64,000 bases of DNA from a phage: the sequence record PZ386969.1; one strand, written 5' to 3'. The first letter of the stretch is position 1, and each line of letters opens with the position of its first letter. The translations under genes were made by a program, and so were the position numbers. Positions 770 through 33,286 of this stretch are shown piece by piece. The notes below the pieces were generated by a model, which was not told where the DNA came from, did not search any database, and saw only the letters and a list, made by a program, of their open reading frames with translations.

Positions 770-2434
770 TCAGATTTGTGATGCCAGTTCTGCTACCAGA
801 GGAGCGGCGCGGACACGCGCATCTTCCAGTGTTTGAGTATTGAAGAACTCGCCATCACGATACACCAGCTGGTGCTGGTTGTCGGCGTCTTGCACCTGAT
901 CAAAGGTGATACCGTCAACCAACACTAGTTTACCCTGAGAGTCTTTAATGACTTTAAGGAAACCACGCGCAGACTTTTTAGTCCCGCCTTTATCGGTCTT
1001 CGGCTCTTTGAAGATCTCACGGAATTCACCGTTCACCTTACCAGCCGTGGCTTTCACTGCCGTGCCAGTACTGTCGCGGGTGTTCATCTGGTAGGTGTAG
1101 GAACCGATACCGAACACCACGTTGATGGAAGCGAAGTTCCGGCCAGCCAGACGGCTAAAGATCTGGTCTTCACGTGCCAGAGTGATGGAGTCACCGTAGA
1201 TCAGACCGATGTGTTCGTCCAACAGGAAGTGGCCAGTTTCAGTCTGGGTTCCACCAAAGATCTCCCACAGGCGCTGGATAGAGCCGACTGCTTCAGAACG
1301 GCTGATGATATTACGGTCATCTGCCATCAGAGAGTTGATCGTGCCTTCGCCTGTGATCAGGTGATAGGTGTTCGTCTCTTCGATGTGAATAACTTCGGTA
1401 CTGCTAGACACGCCGCTGATGTTCAGCGTGGCACGGTCTTTGAACCCCTCGATGCGGTAGCCGCCGACGATGTGCACAGGGTCGCCCGAGTCGGGGCGAA
1501 TCACGACTTTACCATTGCGCGCCATGATAATGTCTTTCAGGCGAGGTAGATAGTCGTCGATGACCTGCCAGTAATCCCACGCATCAGACACGATACTGAC
1601 GATGCCATCAGGATACACGTCCTGCACTAGGCGGCGGAAGGTTTCGAATTCACCATCCTTCGTGCCCATACACATCACCGCATGTTCCGTTGCGGCAACC
1701 GACCCAGCAACGACATAGTCTTCGTCGATGTCTGCGCCATAATACTCTTCTACGAAGTCCAGGGCAGGGTTGGTGTCGGTGCCTTTGAAGAACACCAGAT
1801 GACCGGAACCGGAAGACGCCGCGTCATGCCATCCGCTCATACCACGGAAGGAGAAGTCGTGGCCTTGGTAGTCGATGAACCAATGGTCTGGTGATACTCC
1901 CGTAGCGAGGGCAGCTTTCACCATCAGTGCCTTGTAATGCAGAGCTATGGTGGCGTTCGTCATCGGCTTCCAGATCTCAGAGCTGAACACAGTCTCCAGA
2001 TAGTTGGTCAGCCAGTAGAACTCCGGCAGGGTATTGAACATCACATACACCGGAACACCATACGGGCACATGGTGCCTTCAGGCAGCGCACGGACTTCGA
2101 TAGGCAGGTAGCCGAGGTCATGCAGGGCTTCAATATGCTCTGTGCCGACGCGGCCTGGACCCAGGACTTTGTTCATGCGACGGGCATACTTCTTCAGCAC
2201 CTTGGCCTTCGGGCACTGGAAGAATGCTTCGTCAAACAGTTCGTGGAACCAGGTCATGAAGCCCTGGATGCCCCAGACCACCACGCCGTTCTTCGGCAGG
2301 TGAGAGTTGAACAGTTTGTTAGAGCGCGGAGTTCCGTTGGAGAACACCAGCTCACTGCCTTCAGGGAACTGATAGATGTGCCCCGATTTGTAGAAGTCGA
2401 TTGCATGGATTGGGTCTAAGTGGCGCATGCTCAT
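770..2434 (-). CDS. nadV: nicotinamide phosphoribosyltransferase family protein (NadV/Nampt-like; candidate Namat)
   Basis: 554-aa ORF with ATG start and AGGA RBS; Nampt-like sequence recognised from memory; ATGA overlap with upstream Prs-like gene. Confidence 0.75.
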   Translation of the reverse strand: MSMRHLDPIHAIDFYKSGHIYQFPEGSELVFSNGTPRSNKLFNSHLPKNGVVVWGIQGFMTWFHELFDEAFFQCPKAKVLKKYARRMNKVLGPGRVGTEHIEALHDLGYLPIEVRALPEGTMCPYGVPVYVMFNTLPEFYWLTNYLETVFSSEIWKPMTNATIALHYKALMVKAALATGVSPDHWFIDYQGHDFSFRGMSGWHDAASSGSGHLVFFKGTDTNPALDFVEEYYGADIDEDYVVAGSVAATEHAVMCMGTKDGEFETFRRLVQDVYPDGIVSIVSDAWDYWQVIDDYLPRLKDIIMARNGKVVIRPDSGDPVHIVGGYRIEGFKDRATLNISGVSSSTEVIHIEETNTYHLITGEGTINSLMADDRNIISRSEAVGSIQRLWEIFGGTQTETGHFLLDEHIGLIYGDSITLAREDQIFSRLAGRNFASINVVFGIGSYTYQMNTRDSTGTAVKATAGKVNGEFREIFKEPKTDKGGTKKSARGFLKVIKDSQGKLVLVDGITFDQVQDADNQHQLVYRDGEFFNTQTLEDARVRAAPLVAELASQI

Positions 2435-3285
2435 TTTACACGTCCTGTATTTTCAGTTTTGAAAGGAAGCCCGTCGGCGGTGATGTTCTCCCACCAGACA
2501 GTGTCGGCATACACAGCATCATAGATCCCGTCGAAAACAGAGAGACCTTTGCTGAAGATGCCATGGGTAACGAAGAGCGTCATGTGCTTAGGCTTGTGCT
2601 TCTGAAGCTCTTTGCCTAACTCAACGAAAGTGCGCCCGCCGTCGCAGATATCATCAACCACAACCAGATAGCGGTCTTTGATCAGTTCAGGGTTCGTAAT
2701 ACTCACCCCAATGATCTCACCAGTCTTGGTGTCACGGTTCTTGTGACCGTAGACAACAGGAACACCGTCCAACGACAGGCTGAGGGCTTCGGTCTTCTTA
2801 GCCGCGCCGCCGTCAGGGGCTACCAACACAGCGTTGTTCCCACGGATGAACCAGCCCAGATACTGACGCACGATGTAATCTTGCGGGACAACATGGACGT
2901 TGTTGATCAGAGAAGACACAACATGGCTGTGAGGATCTTTGATCGCCACGCGGTCAAAGTTCATGCTATTGATGAACTCAGCCGCCCACTTCACAGACAG
3001 AGGCTCACCGAAGTCACAATGGCGGTCCTGGCGAGCATACGGGAAGTAAGGGATATACGCATGGAATGTCGTCAGACGGTCCACGTTACCCAGACCACGA
3101 ACGGCATTAACCAGAAGCGCCAGCTCAATGAAGTCGGCTGATGATTTGATGTGAGCATCAATCACCACGTTCTGAACGTGGCCGATAGGGATACCAGACT
3201 TTTGAATCTTGATATGTTCCTCACCACCTGGGAAGGTGAAGTGTTTGTAGAACACATCTTGGTCGTTCAATTTCAAACGAAACAT
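2431..3285 (-). CDS. ribose-phosphate pyrophosphokinase family protein (Prs-like; candidate ADP-ribose pyrophosphokinase Adps)
   Basis: 284 aa; FPYARQDR signature and VVVDDICDGG phosphoribosyl-binding loop; GAGG RBS. Confidence 0.7.
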   Translation of the reverse strand: MFRLKLNDQDVFYKHFTFPGGEEHIKIQKSGIPIGHVQNVVIDAHIKSSADFIELALLVNAVRGLGNVDRLTTFHAYIPYFPYARQDRHCDFGEPLSVKWAAEFINSMNFDRVAIKDPHSHVVSSLINNVHVVPQDYIVRQYLGWFIRGNNAVLVAPDGGAAKKTEALSLSLDGVPVVYGHKNRDTKTGEIIGVSITNPELIKDRYLVVVDDICDGGRTFVELGKELQKHKPKHMTLFVTHGIFSKGLSVFDGIYDAVYADTVWWENITADGLPFKTENTGRVK

Positions 3286-3393
3286 AATGCAGCCTCATGG
3301 TGTATTGTACAACCGTATTATACTGTGATGCACAAATTGAAACGTCCAGCATTTACGCTGGACGTTATTGATATTGAAAAGGTTTTGACAAAC

Positions 3394-3627
3394 TCAGGAT
3401 TTGGAGGAAGCGCCCTTCCATGTCTGACGTTTGTAGTGGGAAGCCATGGCCATCGACCCGGCGTATTGCGTTTCACCCCTGACTACCACAGCCACAACCA
3501 GCTTATGTCGCAACAGGAAGTCTAGACCTGACTTAGACGGGATATCGCCAATGCTCAGTGGACCACGATTGTACAGGGCATACATGGTGTCAAGCGCCGC
3601 CCCGGTAAAGATAATCTCTTTAGACAT
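3394..3627 (-). CDS. hypothetical protein
   Basis: ORF 3394..3732 in track; start moved to internal ATG (MSKEIIF) to remove a 98-nt overlap with the upstream gene. Confidence 0.3.
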   Translation of the reverse strand: MSKEIIFTGAALDTMYALYNRGPLSIGDIPSKSGLDFLLRHKLVVAVVVRGETQYAGSMAMASHYKRQTWKGASSKS

Positions 3628-3634
3628 GGCGGTC

Positions 3635-3940
3635 TCACTTAAACGAGTCAACGATGGATGTAAGAATTTCGGGGGTGGGTTTGGCGTCTTGTGGTTCACG
3701 GAAACCCACCTTTGCGATGCGGCCCAAGACATTGTACACTTCGCGCGGAAGGGTGTCTACGACCGTGTCCGACATGAACGCCACGTCTTCTTGGATGGCG
3801 TTGTATTCGGCCAGTTTAGCCAGTTCTGATTCTACCAGGGACTTCAGCTTTTGCAATGGGTCGTTGCAATAGTTGAGACGGTTGCAGTTGGTGAGCGCCT
3901 GAGTTAAATTCTCAAACGCTTCTTGTATTTCCTTTGACAT
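3635..3940 (-). CDS. hypothetical protein
   Basis: ORF in track; start taken at ATG MSKEIQEAF. Confidence 0.35.
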   Translation of the reverse strand: MSKEIQEAFENLTQALTNCNRLNYCNDPLQKLKSLVESELAKLAEYNAIQEDVAFMSDTVVDTLPREVYNVLGRIAKVGFREPQDAKPTPEILTSIVDSFK

Positions 3941-4322
3941 TGATATGTGCCTCGTATTGTTGACAGACAACAACTACTTTACGGCACATGTCGATATCGA
4001 ACAAGCCAATATGACACTCACGCTTCTTTATCCCCAGCTTATGCGCCAGCCAACTGTAAGCGTCGCTCCTGCTCCTCTCTCCGCTTTTCCACAATGGGTC
4101 AAACGATCTATGGGCTTCCTGCTTAGCAGCACGGAGAGCGGCATTCGCCATCCTTCCCAAAGGTTGTCTGCCGTCGCCATGGGCATGGCAACCGACACGG
4201 GCATCACATGGAGTGCATACCCAGAACTTCAGATTGCGGAGGTCAGGGCGATGAGGGTAGAGAACATCACCACCGACGAATTCGGCTGGGAGGCCACAGT
4301 AATCACATATAACAGGTTTCAT
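3912..4322 (-). CDS. zinc-ribbon protein (four-Cys CxxC...CxxC motif)
   Basis: MKPVICDYCG...CTPCDARVGCHAHGD; start at internal ATG 4322; follows a terminator hairpin at 4341-4360. Confidence 0.45.
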   Translation of the reverse strand: MKPVICDYCGLPAEFVGGDVLYPHRPDLRNLKFWVCTPCDARVGCHAHGDGRQPLGRMANAALRAAKQEAHRSFDPLWKSGERSRSDAYSWLAHKLGIKKRECHIGLFDIDMCRKVVVVCQQYEAHINVKGNTRSV

Positions 4323-25871: not shown

Positions 25872-25917
25872 TTGAAATAAATGGGGGTTAAAATACTCCA
25901 AAGTGAGGATATTTATT

Positions 25918-27702
25918 ATGCCATTCCCCGATAAAAATTGTTTATGCTGCCACAAACCGTTCACCCCAACCAGGAAGGCTGCGTTGTATTGTAGTGACGA
26001 ATGTAAATCATTCATGCTGGGAACGATGAAACGTAATCCGGGTTTGTTGGATGACATCCCGACGACCGAAACCGAATGCCGCTCTTGGGTTGATAGTAAA
26101 CTCAGGAAGAAAGATGGTTCGTTGAACTACAAACTTATCTCTCATCCCCTACTCACGGCCCATACTGGGGTTGATGTTGTTGGATACGTGGTGTCACACA
26201 ACGACCTATTAGAAGAACCACAAGCGATAACTGCTTGGCTGTACGATATTCCGAAGTCGCAGTGTGCCACTTGCGGTGCTGACGTCGGCTTAGAAATGGA
26301 AGTCCAACCACCTAGATACAAAAAGTTTTGTTCCGAAGAATGCCAACGAGAATCAATGAAGGTGGGAGGCTCAGAACGGGCCAACCTAGAAAACGCCATA
26401 ACAGAGAAATATGGCGTAGCCAACATATTCCAACTGGAAGAAGTAAAACAAAAGTCACGGGAAACTGCCCTTAAGAAATATGGGGTCGACCACCCTATGA
26501 AGTCTGATGTTATAAAGGACAGAGTGGCTGCTTCCGTCATGGAACGCTATGGCGTATCACACGTCATGAAAATGCCAGAAGTGAGGGAAAGGGTGATTGA
26601 GACTTGGAGGAAGATCTATGGTGTGGATCATCCAATGTTCCTCAATTCCATTATAGAAAAGAGAAAGAAAACATGCGTCTTAAAATATGGGGTTGATTAT
26701 CCGTTGAAGGTAAAGGCTATATGGGATAGAAGCCAGGCCAATATCAGGATCATTTCAAAAGAAAAATACGGCGTACCTCACTATTTCTCTTCTGAAGAAT
26801 ATAGGAACTCTTTCACATACCCCAGCAGTCAAAGCCAAACACAGCCAGAAATAGAAATATGTTCATACCTGGATTCATTGGGCGTCGTTTATGAATCTGG
26901 TAATTTCTCCGTCCTCAGAGGTAAAATGTTCGACGGGAGGGCGACCACACGCCAGATAGACATATACTGCCCAGAACATAAGTTGGCAATAGAATTTAAT
27001 GGGTTGTATTGGCATTCGGAGAAACATCGATACAAAGACTACCATCTTGAAAAGACCATGCACTGTGAATCACAGGGTATTCAATTAATCCATATCTGGG
27101 AAGATGAGTGGCGTGACAAACAGGAAGTGGTTAAATCACTCCTTAAAGCAAAATTGGGGATAGGGAAACCATTGTCATACGCTCGCCAACATACCATTTT
27201 GGAAGGCTCCTATAGGACGTCCAAGGACTTTCTCGACCGATTCCATATACAAGGCGGTGTGGTGGCGACAGATTATATACACCTTGTAGACAAAACTGGG
27301 AATATCCAGGCGGTGATGTTGTTTACCAAACGAGTGCATGGTATTGAATTGGTGAGATTTGCTTCTAACAATTGCCATGGCGCATTCTCACGCTTGCTGA
27401 AATATTATATCGCTCGACATCGGGGTGAGACAGTATATTCTTTTGGTGATCGTTGTGTTGTCAGTCGTCTGAAAAATGTTTACCTGAATAACGGATTTGT
27501 TGAAAAGGAAATCCTTCCCCCTGATTACAAATATGTGACACCAGACTATAGCTTACGTATACACAAATTCAATTTCAGGAAAGAGAAATTCCTTAAACTT
27601 GGATATGATATAGAAGGTAAAACAGAGGATATGCTGTCGGTAGAAGCTGGGTTGGGGCGTATCTGGGGGTGTGGTCTCATCCGGTATGAACTGGAAAACT
27701 AA
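25918..27702 (+). CDS. free-standing nuclease, probable homing endonuclease (zinc ribbon + five KYGV repeats + PD-(D/E)xK Vsr/DUF559-like domain)
   Basis: Plus-strand ORF between minus-strand sheath and tube genes; RQIDIYCPEHKLAIEFNGLYWHSE...IWEDEW nuclease motif; start moved from GTG 25903 to ATG with GTGAGGA RBS. Confidence 0.7.
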   Translation: MPFPDKNCLCCHKPFTPTRKAALYCSDECKSFMLGTMKRNPGLLDDIPTTETECRSWVDSKLRKKDGSLNYKLISHPLLTAHTGVDVVGYVVSHNDLLEEPQAITAWLYDIPKSQCATCGADVGLEMEVQPPRYKKFCSEECQRESMKVGGSERANLENAITEKYGVANIFQLEEVKQKSRETALKKYGVDHPMKSDVIKDRVAASVMERYGVSHVMKMPEVRERVIETWRKIYGVDHPMFLNSIIEKRKKTCVLKYGVDYPLKVKAIWDRSQANIRIISKEKYGVPHYFSSEEYRNSFTYPSSQSQTQPEIEICSYLDSLGVVYESGNFSVLRGKMFDGRATTRQIDIYCPEHKLAIEFNGLYWHSEKHRYKDYHLEKTMHCESQGIQLIHIWEDEWRDKQEVVKSLLKAKLGIGKPLSYARQHTILEGSYRTSKDFLDRFHIQGGVVATDYIHLVDKTGNIQAVMLFTKRVHGIELVRFASNNCHGAFSRLLKYYIARHRGETVYSFGDRCVVSRLKNVYLNNGFVEKEILPPDYKYVTPDYSLRIHKFNFRKEKFLKLGYDIEGKTEDMLSVEAGLGRIWGCGLIRYELEN

Positions 27703-29674: not shown

Positions 29675-31885
29675 TCACCGTCTCAGCCATTCTTCCATAG
29701 ACATACCAGAGCGTTCATCATAAACCTGAATTCCACCGAACCCTGGGATGTTCTCCACAGAGTGAGGATCTGGCGTCGACATCATACCCCCAAATGGTAG
29801 CATCTGAGATTCTTCCATCGCAGACAACCGTCCTCTCATGTCGACTGAGATACTGGAGTTGGTGAGGTCACTAAACCATTCTTGTTTCACCGCCCATGCA
29901 TACAGCACAAGAGGCATTACACAGTCATCATGACAACCATCATCGGCTTCATACCTTGTTCCAGTCCATACGAATGTACTGAGTTCATCTATCGTGTCCT
30001 GGTCATCTATCACCAGCATTTCACGTTCAATCAGGGCTTTCAGGTTGGCACAGCCGTTTGTGCGCACCTTCTTGTTGGTATTGATACCAGGCTCAGGGCG
30101 GCGACCACCGATTCTCTTGCCTGTGCCCTTGGTATCTGTTGTAGTGAAGATGATCTCGGGATATTCAATTTCCTGGTATAGAATTGTGATCACCTGACCA
30201 CCCACGTCGTTGTTAGTCTCGACTAGCATCGGGCACGTTCCATACTTCTCGCCCATATCGGCGATTGTGTACGCGTACATCATTGGAGGTATCGTGTTAT
30301 TTCGATACTTGGCTGCGATCTTGTGAGGATAGTCTGTGATGTCGATAATGGTCAGCACAGAATAATCCCCTTCGACACCCTTGCCTGTATCTGCGATACC
30401 CATATAGATGCGCTTAGGATCGTAGTCGTGATAAATCTTGGTGAACTCGTTCGGCTCCTGATACAGCTTCGAGGTCATCTTGTCCAGACACTTGGCAGGT
30501 ATCAGTGATCCCACAGAACCACGGAACTTAATGCCAAATTCTTGATCGAAACGTGCATCACCCAGCTTCGCCCTTTGTTTGGATTCCCAGTCTGGATCTT
30601 TGGTGTACGTTGGAACACGATACCATGGGACCTCGGTGAGTTTGAAGTCGTTGTATTGTGGGTGTTCTGGGTTCGCCTTGGTGACGATGTCGTAGAACAA
30701 CCCGCGCTGACCTTTCGGCGTACTGGTCAGAATACAACGTGAAGTCTCTGCAGATGCAATCGCCGGGAATGTAGACTCCCAGAATTCAAAGTCGTTTTCA
30801 ATGAACGCCACTTCGTCCACATACAGGAGCGATACGGATCGACCACGGATGGAGTCGGAAGATGTCGCATAGGCGTAGATCTTTGATCCGTTTTCGAACT
30901 CGATCAGCGTGGAACCGAACTTCTCACAACCCTGTTGGAGGAAGAATGGCAAATCTTGATATGCTTTGCGAATACGATCTAGGATTTCAATCGCCTGCTT
31001 CTCTTTGTTCGCCAGTACTGCGATCTCTTTGTCGGAGTGGAACATCGCATACCAGAGCAGGAACGCTGCCACGACTGTCGTGTTGTGGCTGAGGAAGCCG
31101 TTGGTGTAGTAGCGCTGATCACTAGATTTCACCTGTAGGTCATACATGTGATGTGTCTCACCAGTCTGCCAAATCTCACGGATTTCTTCTGGACCTTCTG
31201 ACGTCATGATGTATGACCCAGAATTCAGGTCTTTGGCAAATATCTCCTTCATTTCCGGAGTGAAGAATATATGTTCGTCGGCCACGTTAATTCGCCGCCC
31301 AGTAACAGTCACAATAACGAATTCCGCATATTTCTTCGTCTTATGCGCTGCGATAACCGGAACCCAACCACTATCGGATTGCACAAAGTAACGTTTGCCG
31401 AAGCGGCTGTCCACGAACTTGTCATGGTTGCCAATGGTATTCAGCGGCACAGCGTGGTTGACGTCCTCGAAGCGGCTGTGAAGCTCCCCTATGGTCAGGA
31501 GCAACTGCTCTTGGCTGAGAGTATCGTAAACTGTGACAAGCGTGTCACCTTTTACACATTTCCCAGACTGACGAGCCTGGACGACCGCATTGAATCGATA
31601 GTCCTGGAAGTCATGGAACAACTGCTTCTGGTAATCGTGCATGTCAAAGAGGATGAAGCCTTTATCGATGGTCGTGATCTTGTAGTAGTTGGCGGCGAAG
31701 TAATGGGCGTCCATCGCGCACTCGACGAACTCCGATTCCTGCTCATCTGTTAGCATCAACTCCACACGAGGAGCGCGCACAGACGGCTTGCGCATGAACG
31801 TTTGGTCCATACGCAGTCTGACGTCTTCTGTCTTAAACCCCGTCTTGAGTGGGGCGTATTCTACATCACGCTTCTGATACGCCAT
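29675..31885 (-). CDS. terL: terminase large subunit (gp17-like) containing a mini-intein
   Basis: ARQSGK...TTVVAAFLLWYAMFHSDKEIAVLA matches T4 gp17 [30 protein letters not shown] once the insert is removed; C-terminal HDDCVMPLV; start at ATG with AAGGTG RBS. Confidence 0.9.
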   Translation of the reverse strand: MAYQKRDVEYAPLKTGFKTEDVRLRMDQTFMRKPSVRAPRVELMLTDEQESEFVECAMDAHYFAANYYKITTIDKGFILFDMHDYQKQLFHDFQDYRFNAVVQARQSGKCVKGDTLVTVYDTLSQEQLLLTIGELHSRFEDVNHAVPLNTIGNHDKFVDSRFGKRYFVQSDSGWVPVIAAHKTKKYAEFVIVTVTGRRINVADEHIFFTPEMKEIFAKDLNSGSYIMTSEGPEEIREIWQTGETHHMYDLQVKSSDQRYYTNGFLSHNTTVVAAFLLWYAMFHSDKEIAVLANKEKQAIEILDRIRKAYQDLPFFLQQGCEKFGSTLIEFENGSKIYAYATSSDSIRGRSVSLLYVDEVAFIENDFEFWESTFPAIASAETSRCILTSTPKGQRGLFYDIVTKANPEHPQYNDFKLTEVPWYRVPTYTKDPDWESKQRAKLGDARFDQEFGIKFRGSVGSLIPAKCLDKMTSKLYQEPNEFTKIYHDYDPKRIYMGIADTGKGVEGDYSVLTIIDITDYPHKIAAKYRNNTIPPMMYAYTIADMGEKYGTCPMLVETNNDVGGQVITILYQEIEYPEIIFTTTDTKGTGKRIGGRRPEPGINTNKKVRTNGCANLKALIEREMLVIDDQDTIDELSTFVWTGTRYEADDGCHDDCVMPLVLYAWAVKQEWFSDLTNSSISVDMRGRLSAMEESQMLPFGGMMSTPDPHSVENIPGFGGIQVYDERSGMSMEEWLRR
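31082..31558 (-). mobile_element. mini-intein (159 aa) in the TerL Walker A motif
   Basis: Insert begins CVKGDTLV right after SGK and ends SHN followed by Thr; no endonuclease domain. Confidence 0.8.
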
Positions 31886-32588
31886 TGTCTTCACCTTCTT
31901 CCTTCGGCTGCGGCTCGGCCTGAACGTCGATTACATCTTCTTCGGGATCAGGTCCTTTGGACGCAGCTTTCGCTGCAGCACGTTCTTCAGCACGTTTACG
32001 GGCGTCTTCGATGGTCTTCAGTAGATCACGGGAAGACCTGGCCTGTTTACCGACGTTGACCGTGGTTGTGCCATCAGGGGACGTGGTGACCTCGACGGTT
32101 GTTTCATCTCCAGGAGGTGGCTCTCTGTCGCCCGTGACTGCCTTGATAGTTTTCTGGTTCTCCATCAGGTCTTTGTTCAGACCGCGCATGAGTTCACCCA
32201 ACTCTTTAAAGACTGTGAAGGCACGGGGTGCTTCAGTCGTCGTCGCAAGTTTGGCTGCCTGTCCCATCATGAACATCGTGGCTTCCTGCATGGCATAAGT
32301 CGTGTCACGGATGCGTTTGTAGTCGGTGGTGGCATCAGTGTCTTCGAAGTCTGGAACCTTAGACTCCTTGGGCTTCAGCTCTTCTGGGTCCAATGAAGGA
32401 GGAAACACCACAGGCTCATACCCCGCAGACTCATACCCCGCAGGCTTTTCACCCAACCATTCACCTGTATCCGGATCGTAATCTTTTCCAGCCACAGGCG
32501 AGGTCTTCTCCATGACTTCTTGAGCGACCTCATCTCGCGCTTGGATAGCACTGAGGGTGGATAATAGGCGTTCTGACATAGCACTCAT
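31866..32588 (-). CDS. terS: terminase small subunit (gp16-like)
   Basis: Central region resembles T4 gp16; overlaps terL start by 20 nt; start moved from TTG to ATG with GGAG RBS. Confidence 0.6.
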   Translation of the reverse strand: MSAMSERLLSTLSAIQARDEVAQEVMEKTSPVAGKDYDPDTGEWLGEKPAGYESAGYEPVVFPPSLDPEELKPKESKVPDFEDTDATTDYKRIRDTTYAMQEATMFMMGQAAKLATTTEAPRAFTVFKELGELMRGLNKDLMENQKTIKAVTGDREPPPGDETTVEVTTSPDGTTTVNVGKQARSSRDLLKTIEDARKRAEERAAAKAASKGPDPEEDVIDVQAEPQPKEEGEDNGVSEA

Positions 32589-32590
32589 AA

Positions 32591-33286
32591 TCAATCTCCA
32601 GGATGATGTACACCGTCTTTGTCAACACGGAACCACTCTGGCAGTTCCGTCCACGGTGTTTTCAAATCATTAGACATTTCGATAATTATCTCTTTGATCC
32701 CGTTAGGATCCCCACCTCCACCGTTGTCCACCCAATAGTCATACCCGTAGATGAAGCCACTCAGCTGGAACATGAAGGAGCAGTCGACGTGTGGTGAATC
32801 AGAAGCATCCCCTTCCCAGTTATCGGACATCTGGTGGCTAACCAGTTGGATCTTGATCTTCTGGTCTTGCTGTAGTGTATCGTTGTCCTTGATACCACAG
32901 TCTAGAGAGGGAGTGAATACCGAATAAACCTGCTCTAGCACCTGTAACATCTCAACCAATTTCTTGGTTCGGATATTGTACTCAAAATCGATAATCAGGG
33001 GGATTCGCTGCTTCGCCCCTGCTGTTGGTGTCGATTGTCGATTGTGGTACGTCTTCGTCACCTGTTTGTTGATCTCAAACTGACCAAAAGAGAAAGTCGC
33101 AAATGGAAGCATGTTGGACGGCACGTTCCTGTTGAGGTCATTGCGTCTCCCGATGGCCATGTGTAATGGGACTTCCATAAGTCCACGCTCTGTGTTCACC
33201 TTCAGGTCAGACATAATGGTGGCAAACAGATTGATGTATTTCATCAATGAATCATGGTAGAAGTAATTTTCAAATGGTCTGGCCAT
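32591..33286 (-). CDS. tail sheath stabiliser / tail completion protein (gp15 position)
   Basis: Synteny between gp14 and terS; weak resemblance to T4 gp15. Confidence 0.5.
   Translation of the reverse strand: MARPFENYFYHDSLMKYINLFATIMSDLKVNTERGLMEVPLHMAIGRRNDLNRNVPSNMLPFATFSFGQFEINKQVTKTYHNRQSTPTAGAKQRIPLIIDFEYNIRTKKLVEMLQVLEQVYSVFTPSLDCGIKDNDTLQQDQKIKIQLVSHQMSDNWEGDASDSPHVDCSFMFQLSGFIYGYDYWVDNGGGGDPNGIKEIIIEMSNDLKTPWTELPEWFRVDKDGVHHPGD

Follow-up and report, generated by a model that had tools for sequence, protein, structure and literature searches.

The element analysed here is an insert in the large terminase (TerL) gene of a 64,000-nucleotide (nt) stretch of phage DNA from sequence record PZ386969.1 (the whole stretch is referred to below as the window); its closest described relatives are the inteins of other phage terminases. 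Inteins are well documented in the ATP-binding loop (P-loop) of phage terminases, where the 'classic' insertion point falls between the invariant Lys and the nucleophilic Thr (PMC5050341). Kelley et al. (2016, mBio; PMC5050341) concluded that a terminase with such an intein needs splicing both to form its active site and to assemble into pentamers. Five mycobacteriophage terminase inteins splice efficiently (TerL1-b, TerL1-c, TerL1-e, TerL6-f and Pham3880-g), all of them at sites other than GK^T (a caret marks an intein junction; PMC5050341). In the family Ackermannviridae, the genome announcement of Salmonella phage Marshall (2013) reported a large terminase interrupted by an intein, unlike that of T4 (PMC3853055), and the announcement of Klebsiella phage Magnus (2019) also reported an intein-interrupted large terminase (PMC6763660). 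Atypical split TerL inteins, in turn, are used in protein engineering (PMC11766414).

In the window, the minus-strand segment 31082–31558 is very probably a contiguous class 1, cis-splicing mini-intein lodged in the Walker A motif of a T4 gp17-type TerL, and its excision would precede any packaging ATPase activity. The features of the gene and of the insert are as follows.

29675–31885, minus strand: TerL precursor gene, a T4 gp17-type large terminase holding the intein (736 codons plus stop)

31559–31885, minus strand: N-extein, 109 amino acids (aa), whose last residues, ...ARQSGK, are the opening half of Walker A; the T4 gp17 alignment extends as far as GK

31082–31558, minus strand: predicted 159-aa class 1 mini-intein (HINT domain, no endonuclease), from translation, profiles and predicted fold

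29675–31081, minus strand: C-extein, 468 aa plus stop, with the remaining ATPase domain and the RNaseH-like nuclease domain (Pfam, T4 gp17 alignment)

31556–31558, minus strand: Cys1 (block A), predicted nucleophile of the N-S acyl shift and sole Cys in the intein; invariant in 30 homologues

31271–31282, minus strand: block B, A93-D94-E95-H96; A93, D94 and H96 invariant; aligns to S-D-N-H of CatC and S-E-E-H of gp41-1

31139–31141, minus strand: block F Asp140 (in HHMYDLQV), invariant; aligned with block F of the CatC, gp41-1 and CDC21 inteins

31082–31087, minus strand: block G His158-Asn159, the terminal Asn predicted to cyclise and free the intein; L156, S157, H158 and N159 invariant

31079–31081, minus strand: Thr+1, first C-extein residue, predicted splice-junction nucleophile and Walker A Thr (GK-T), from the T4 gp17 alignment

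The long open reading frame (ORF) enclosing TerL extends from 29675 to 31894 on the minus strand. Comparison with annotated orthologues set the start of TerL at the ATG at 31885 (MAYQ...), yielding a 736-aa protein. Pfam matches to Terminase_6N (PF03237, 63.5 bits) and Terminase_6C (PF17289, 29 bits), both exceeding their cut-offs, flanked a below-threshold match to Intein_splicing. With its N-terminal ATPase carrying Walker A and its C-terminal RNaseH-like nuclease, the protein is a T4 gp17-type (Terminase_6) large terminase. At the DNA level it was 98.5% identical to the large terminase of Escherichia phages LHE287, YX22, RPN242 and AV101 (the LHE287 counterpart is annotated 'terminase large subunit') and about 87% identical to that of Shigella phage Ag3 (Ackermannviridae, Aglimvirinae, Agtrevirus). 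The source phage is an Agtrevirus-like member of the Ackermannviridae.

Read on the minus strand, segment 31082–31558 translates to 159 aa (CVKGDTLVTV...YYTNGFLSHN), while the plus strand is full of stops. An earlier note on this DNA had given exactly these coordinates and this length, and had missed the strand. TerL reads ...FNAVVQARQSGK^C...HN^TTVVAAFLLWYAMF..., with ...NAVVQARQSGK as the N-side context, so that the insert lies, as the earlier note had proposed, within Walker A, separating its Lys from its Thr (RQSGK^TTV).

In an NCBIfam search of the insert, the model TIGR01445 (intein_Nterm) was covered in full and scored 25.2 bits against a cut-off of 24.5. A sequence search of the PDB returned five matches, every one an intein; the top match was CatC, a consensus of the atypical split TerL inteins. 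The structure predicted by AlphaFold2 (AF2) from a 30-sequence alignment of the window intein and full-length homologous proteins was a single compact HINT domain (pLDDT 95.1, pTM 0.87). When this model was compared with the PDB using Foldseek, all of the top 50 matches were HINT domains of inteins or of bacterial intein-like (BIL) proteins, with template-modelling (TM) scores of up to 0.79 (query-normalised) and 0.84 (target-normalised), and the model covered known mini-inteins end to end. The top match was VidaL, a naturally split TerL intein (E 1.9e-10, TM 0.76/0.83). No endonuclease domain was found in the 159-aa insert by Pfam or NCBIfam, as the earlier note had expected, and by its size (mini-inteins measure about 130–200 aa) and its predicted single-domain fold, with no LAGLIDADG, HNH or GIY-YIG domain between the splicing halves, the insert is classed as a mini-intein free of a homing endonuclease. 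A hidden Markov model (HMM) made from seven inteins detected no second intein in the six-frame translation of the window. Base composition showed no anomaly (GC 0.488 for the intein, 0.49 for the C-extein and 0.487 for the window).

The residues expected at the junctions, Cys1, a C-terminal His158-Asn159 and Thr+1, were all present, and their combination is, by sequence, the class 1 intein pattern. The Cys1/Thr+1 pairing occurs in ∼12% of inteins (PMC11766414). Across the 30 homologues, which range down to 27% identity, the invariant intein residues were C1, K47, F48, G64, T74, A93, D94, H96, M138, D140, T152, L156, S157, H158 and N159. Nei-Gojobori estimates of dN/dS, the ratio of non-synonymous to synonymous substitution rates, were 0.05–0.20 for the intein where dS was unsaturated, and 0.005–0.03 for the C-extein. 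The intein thus evolves faster than TerL, yet purifying selection clearly acts on its protein sequence. Such selection would be expected if failure to splice is lethal.

Removal of the insert restored a continuous P-loop, as had been claimed. The 577-aa spliced TerL aligned without gaps across the junction to the T4 gp17 structures 3ezk and 3cpe (E 4e-72, residues 28–517), 'vqarqsgkttvvaafllwy' in the spliced TerL standing opposite 'nlsrqlgkttvvaiflahf' in T4 gp17, an agreement far above chance. A query spanning the junction matched more than 2,300 records of T4-like phages in one piece, and those of Ackermannviridae in two. Homologues lacking the intein carry an unbroken RQSGKTTVVAAFLLWY. They include the 580-aa TerL of Vibrio phage K485 (L010), which is 55% identical and reads CRQSGKTTVVAAFLLWY, and five metagenomic proteins (P0015–P0019, 575–581 aa), which are 73–85% identical to the window extein and read ARQSGKTTVVAAFLLWYA(M/L)F without interruption; for two of these five, the contig of origin shows the same neck-gp15-TerS-TerL-sheath-tube-portal order. 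The earlier note had named as one refutation an alignment revealing the 159 aa to be a conserved TerL domain of intein-free homologues. The insert is absent from T4 gp17, K485 and P0015–P0019, and intein-free homologues at 55–85% identity rule out that it is such a domain. In a neighbour-joining tree of exteins (no bootstrap), the intein-free P0015, P0016/17 and P0018/19 were interleaved with intein-bearing lineages, and distant Vibrio-phage-like clades also mixed intein-free and intein-bearing members; this patchy distribution implies that the TerL intein was repeatedly gained or lost. Ackermannviridae-like structural modules with an empty TerL intein site (ARQSGKTTVV...) were seen in K485 and in three Logan contigs (L012, L013 and L014).

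The route from precursor to active terminase would be the following. TerL would be translated as a 736-aa precursor in which the ATP-binding loop is split by the 159-aa HINT domain and the P-loop is unable to form. Cys1, aided by the block B His96, would attack the carbonyl of Lys(-1) in an N-S acyl shift, and Thr+1 would then accept the N-extein by trans-esterification. Cyclisation of Asn159, aided by His158 and the block F Asp140, would release the intein, and an O-N shift would give the 577-aa mature TerL with its P-loop, RQSGKTT, restored. Without splicing, TerL would neither bind nor hydrolyse ATP, nor take its place in the packaging motor; the earlier note's view that packaging ATPase activity depends on splicing is sound as an inference. 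This chemistry, and the dependence of packaging on it, are drawn from the established intein mechanism and from the viability of phage isolates with 98% identical genes; we infer splicing because these phages, whose Walker A is split in the same way, are propagated isolates.

The TerL intein is already known from sister phages, in which the orthologue is annotated. The Salmonella phage Mooltan record describes an 'intein-containing terminase large subunit precursor' with a 477-nt 'intein' mature peptide at the homologous position, and the nr database holds an 'intein' entry for Salmonella phages Maynard and Marshall (159 aa, 76% identical to the window intein). The annotated Ackermannviridae inteins and that of the window have the GK^TT site, the length (159 aa, 477 nt) and the junction residues in common; the window differs from them in carrying another, mosaic allele. 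A tblastn search found the intein in 310 phage records, almost all of Ackermannviridae, 285 of them near full length (at least 80% coverage), and in an exhaustive HMMER scan 699 representative proteins matched it. Since an orthologous TerL intein has been annotated since 2013 and P-loop terminase inteins are well described, the element adds little by way of discovery. What novelty is left concerns the mosaicism of its allele and the pattern of presence and absence, both typical of phage mobile elements and of modest specialist interest. There is also some value for annotation: most close relatives carry TerL labels such as 'terminase large subunit', 'hypothetical protein' or even 'pretoxin HINT domain protein', the window's closest ones (LHE287, RPN242, AV101 and others) labelling the gene only 'terminase large subunit' or 'hypothetical protein'.

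The mosaic allele became apparent when the intein and its exteins were compared separately with those of two other phages. At the aa level, the C-extein of the window was 97.7% identical to that of Ag3 and the intein only 73.6%; relative to the Kuttervirus SE14, the intein was 96.9% identical and the C-extein 86.4%. Sliding-window comparison and informative sites delimited the following segment.

31172–31601, minus strand: recombinant patch of 430 nt (gene nt 285–714), Kuttervirus (SE14)-type in an otherwise Agtrevirus (Ag3)-type TerL

The patch begins in the N-extein, 43 nt ahead of the intein, runs through ∼129 intein codons and stops 90 nt short of the intein's end; the last ∼30 codons are Ag3-type in the window. 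In sliding windows its identity was 97–100% to SE14 and 62–80% to Ag3. SE14-like informative sites made up 107 of 112 inside the patch and 69 of 373 outside it (Fisher p = 7.5e-53). Since the edges of the patch do not match those of the intein, it is a homologous gene-conversion tract rather than a precise homing event. It was 95–96% identical to ∼90 Salmonella phage records (those examined were Kuttervirus) and 98–99% identical within the window's own clade, and SE14-type first ∼129 codons were present in 94 of the 310 phage records with an intein match (again Kuttervirus in the records examined). The direction of transfer between the Kuttervirus and Agtrevirus types cannot be told from these identities. 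The intein of Salmonella phage LPST94 (L004, 2001–2477) was also chimeric: residues 1 to ∼80 were SE14-type and the rest Mooltan-type, with exteins identical to those of SE14. By its sequence, this is a second, independent intra-intein recombination. The intein-free alleles interleaved in the extein tree (no bootstrap) and the mismatch between intein and extein identities led to the rejection of an intein that is universal in the family and strictly vertical in descent. On the reading favoured here, that of a splicing mini-intein, the endonuclease-free element would persist through vertical inheritance and through homologous recombination when related phages infect the same cell. TerL is a widely used phylogenetic marker, and a mosaic intein segment would distort TerL trees unless removed. 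Further, the patchy distribution and the intra-intein recombination together offer a natural data set on the persistence and movement of inteins that lack an endonuclease.

Among terminase inteins outside the family, the mycobacteriophage TerL1-a inteins also interrupt the Walker A motif of a large terminase between Lys and Thr, as the window intein does; their host belongs to the Terminase_1 family, while that of the window belongs to Terminase_6 (PMC5050341). The only TerL6 intein described by Kelley et al. lies in the C-motif and not, as in the window, in the P-loop (PMC5050341). At least TerL1-b and TerL1-c contain active homing endonucleases, unlike the window intein (PMC5050341). A further comparison is with AceL-TerL, GOS-TerL, VidaL and the engineered consensus Cat (PDB 6dsl, 6vgv), whose host family, metagenomic T4-like TerL, is common to the window intein. 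The window intein and these atypical split inteins have in common a block F/G of the form YDL...YYTNG(I/F)(V/L)SHN. The window intein, however, is encoded in one uninterrupted reading frame and is predicted to splice in cis, whereas the atypical split inteins are encoded by two genes, a short IntN and a long IntC, and splice in trans. The junction residues also differ: Cys1/Thr+1 in the window, Cys1/Cys+1 in AceL-TerL and Cat, and Ser1/Cys+1 in GOS-TerL (PMC11766414). As it occupies a single reading frame, the window intein is not itself a split intein; it is related to the AceL-TerL/GOS-TerL/VidaL group by sequence and fold. Its sequence places it as the contiguous form of the lineage from which the atypical split TerL inteins arose (PMC11766414), and as a contiguous, mesophilic relative of these protein-engineering tools it could be of interest to that field.

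Many of the 699 representative proteins matching the intein begin at intein residue ∼46, and two split TerLs, both with the intein at the same GK^ site, are divided at that point. In Logan SRR23684539 contig L015, within a T4-like module, TerL is split into segments 1924–2415 and 2501–4288, with a 42-aa ORF between the halves. The N-part ends ...CRQSGK^CVDGETII... (∼53 aa of intein), and the C-part (P0045) starts at about intein residue 44 and runs ...YYTNGILSHN^TTVVGAF... The TerL of Agrobacterium jumbo phage Atu_ph07 (L009) consists of two adjacent coding sequences (CDSs), 1983–2354 and 2366–4174. The first ends ...GRQLGK^SVHKSTDITY... (∼45 aa), and the second opens with ∼148 intein residues, ...LFYTNGILSHN^TTVAAAYLLW. 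From these sequences, the Atu_ph07 intein, which has Ser1 and occupies the same GK^ site, appears to be naturally split and to splice in trans.

Three other explanations of the insert were weighed. The first accepts splicing and supposes that the intein is kept as a post-translational gate, conditional splicing timing or tuning the packaging ATPase, which would make it more than a neutral selfish remnant. Roles of this kind have been discussed for P-loop inteins by Kelley et al. (PMC5050341), and an element that has no endonuclease, yet occurs in nearly all sequenced Ackermannviridae (the 285 records mentioned above) and is under purifying selection, would fit one. Purifying selection, however, is expected regardless, since an intein that failed to leave Walker A would be lethal, and the syntenic intein-free relatives interleaved in the extein tree indicate that the intein is dispensable. 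Further, its single Cys leaves no room for an intramolecular disulfide switch within the intein. A gating role is therefore improbable. A wider version adds that short cross-subfamily conversion patches (Kuttervirus-type to Agtrevirus-type, as at 31172–31601) reshuffle the intein among the Ackermannviridae, swapping alleles of differing splicing kinetics, and that its spread to empty sites is perhaps aided in trans by the free-standing homing endonucleases common in these genomes, such as the NUMOD3 gene between TerS and TerL in Limestonevirus. The mosaicism of alleles and the patchy presence and absence are observed; gating and trans-mobilisation are speculation, and as a whole this version has little probability.

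Several observations weigh against splicing itself. Pfam Intein_splicing (PF14890) matched the insert with E 9e-9 and 35.7 bits, 0.1 bit below its gathering score of 35.8, and TIGR01443 (intein_Cterm) scored 11.9 bits, below its cut-off of 15.6; in this search with intein profiles, which the earlier note had put forward as a check, TIGR01445 reached its cut-off and these two models did not. The usual Thr/Ser of block B is Ala93 throughout the intein lineage, a departure from the textbook TxxH. Finally, the searchable literature yielded no experiment on the splicing of the window TerL or on that of any Ackermannviridae orthologue. The His of block B is its conserved catalytic part, while the Thr is often, not always, conserved; the invariance of the Ala across the lineage suggests that it is tolerated. 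The marginal profile scores, the block B Ala and the lack of an endonuclease would all fit a degenerate HINT-derived domain that has lost splicing and is tolerated, or has been co-opted, as a permanent insertion in TerL. The geometry of a P-loop is, however, incompatible with a 159-aa domain wedged between its invariant Lys and Thr, C1, H96, D140, H158, N159 and T+1 are all invariant over the 30 homologues, and the naturally split versions at the same site make sense only if the HINT domain ligates the halves. Loss of splicing is, on this evidence, highly unlikely.

Class 3 inteins lack a nucleophile at position 1 and use an internal Cys in block F. That the insert is an autoprocessing domain of BIL or Hedgehog type, cleaving without ligation, or a class 2 or class 3 intein with another nucleophile, is barely credible: the HINT fold is common to these, BIL2 structures appear at Foldseek ranks 35–42 and one GenBank record names an orthologue 'pretoxin HINT domain protein', but Cys1, the C-terminal His-Asn and Thr+1 are the class 1 signature, the intein has no Cys other than Cys1, Walker A of TerL needs ligation to be rebuilt and the top fold and sequence matches are true inteins. 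The junction residues led to the rejection of both a BIL domain and a class 3 intein.

Other arrangements of inteins were seen in related terminases. Campylobacter phage CP21 (L008, 1994–4439) has a related intein of ∼34% identity placed three residues earlier in the P-loop (PRQ^C...SHN^SSKSTT). Its annotated TerL CDS is cut short after ...SFRGFS^CLENTRVQV..., where a second intein seems to begin, and the next ORF holds a GIY-YIG/T5orf172-like segment. An 838-aa protein (P0050) contains two inteins, one at GK^T and one before Walker B (IRGKS^C...SHN^CALLYLDE). Pfam GIY-YIG (PF01541) was matched by P0052, P0056 and the TerL of Vibrio phage VP-1 (P0059). In P0052 and P0056, both of which have the P-loop intein, similarity to TerL stops after ...QE(F/Y)(E/A)CLWG and a GIY-YIG region follows, a sequence arrangement that suggests in-frame read-through into an inserted endonuclease gene or intron.

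The gene order TerS, TerL, tail sheath is the same in the window and in its relatives. The small terminase lies directly upstream of TerL.

31866–32594, minus strand: TerS (small terminase) ORF, overlapping the start of TerL

TerS matched Pfam DNA_Packaging with 29.2 bits (cut-off 25). No homing endonuclease gene is present between TerS and TerL in the window. In Dickeya phage phiD3 (L005, Limestonevirus), a homing endonuclease-like gene with a NUMOD3 motif (809–1687) lies between TerS and an intein-bearing TerL, the latter being the one annotated 'pretoxin HINT domain protein'. Elsewhere in the window, a 599-aa ORF at 25903–27702 on the plus strand lies on the opposite strand to the tail-tube and tail-sheath genes that flank it. 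It matched DUF7487 repeats (90 bits) and contains a DUF559/REase_MTES_1575-like nuclease region below both cut-offs, and from its sequence it looks like a free-standing gene of homing-endonuclease type. In the close relative RPN242 the same slot is occupied by a GIY-YIG endonuclease instead.

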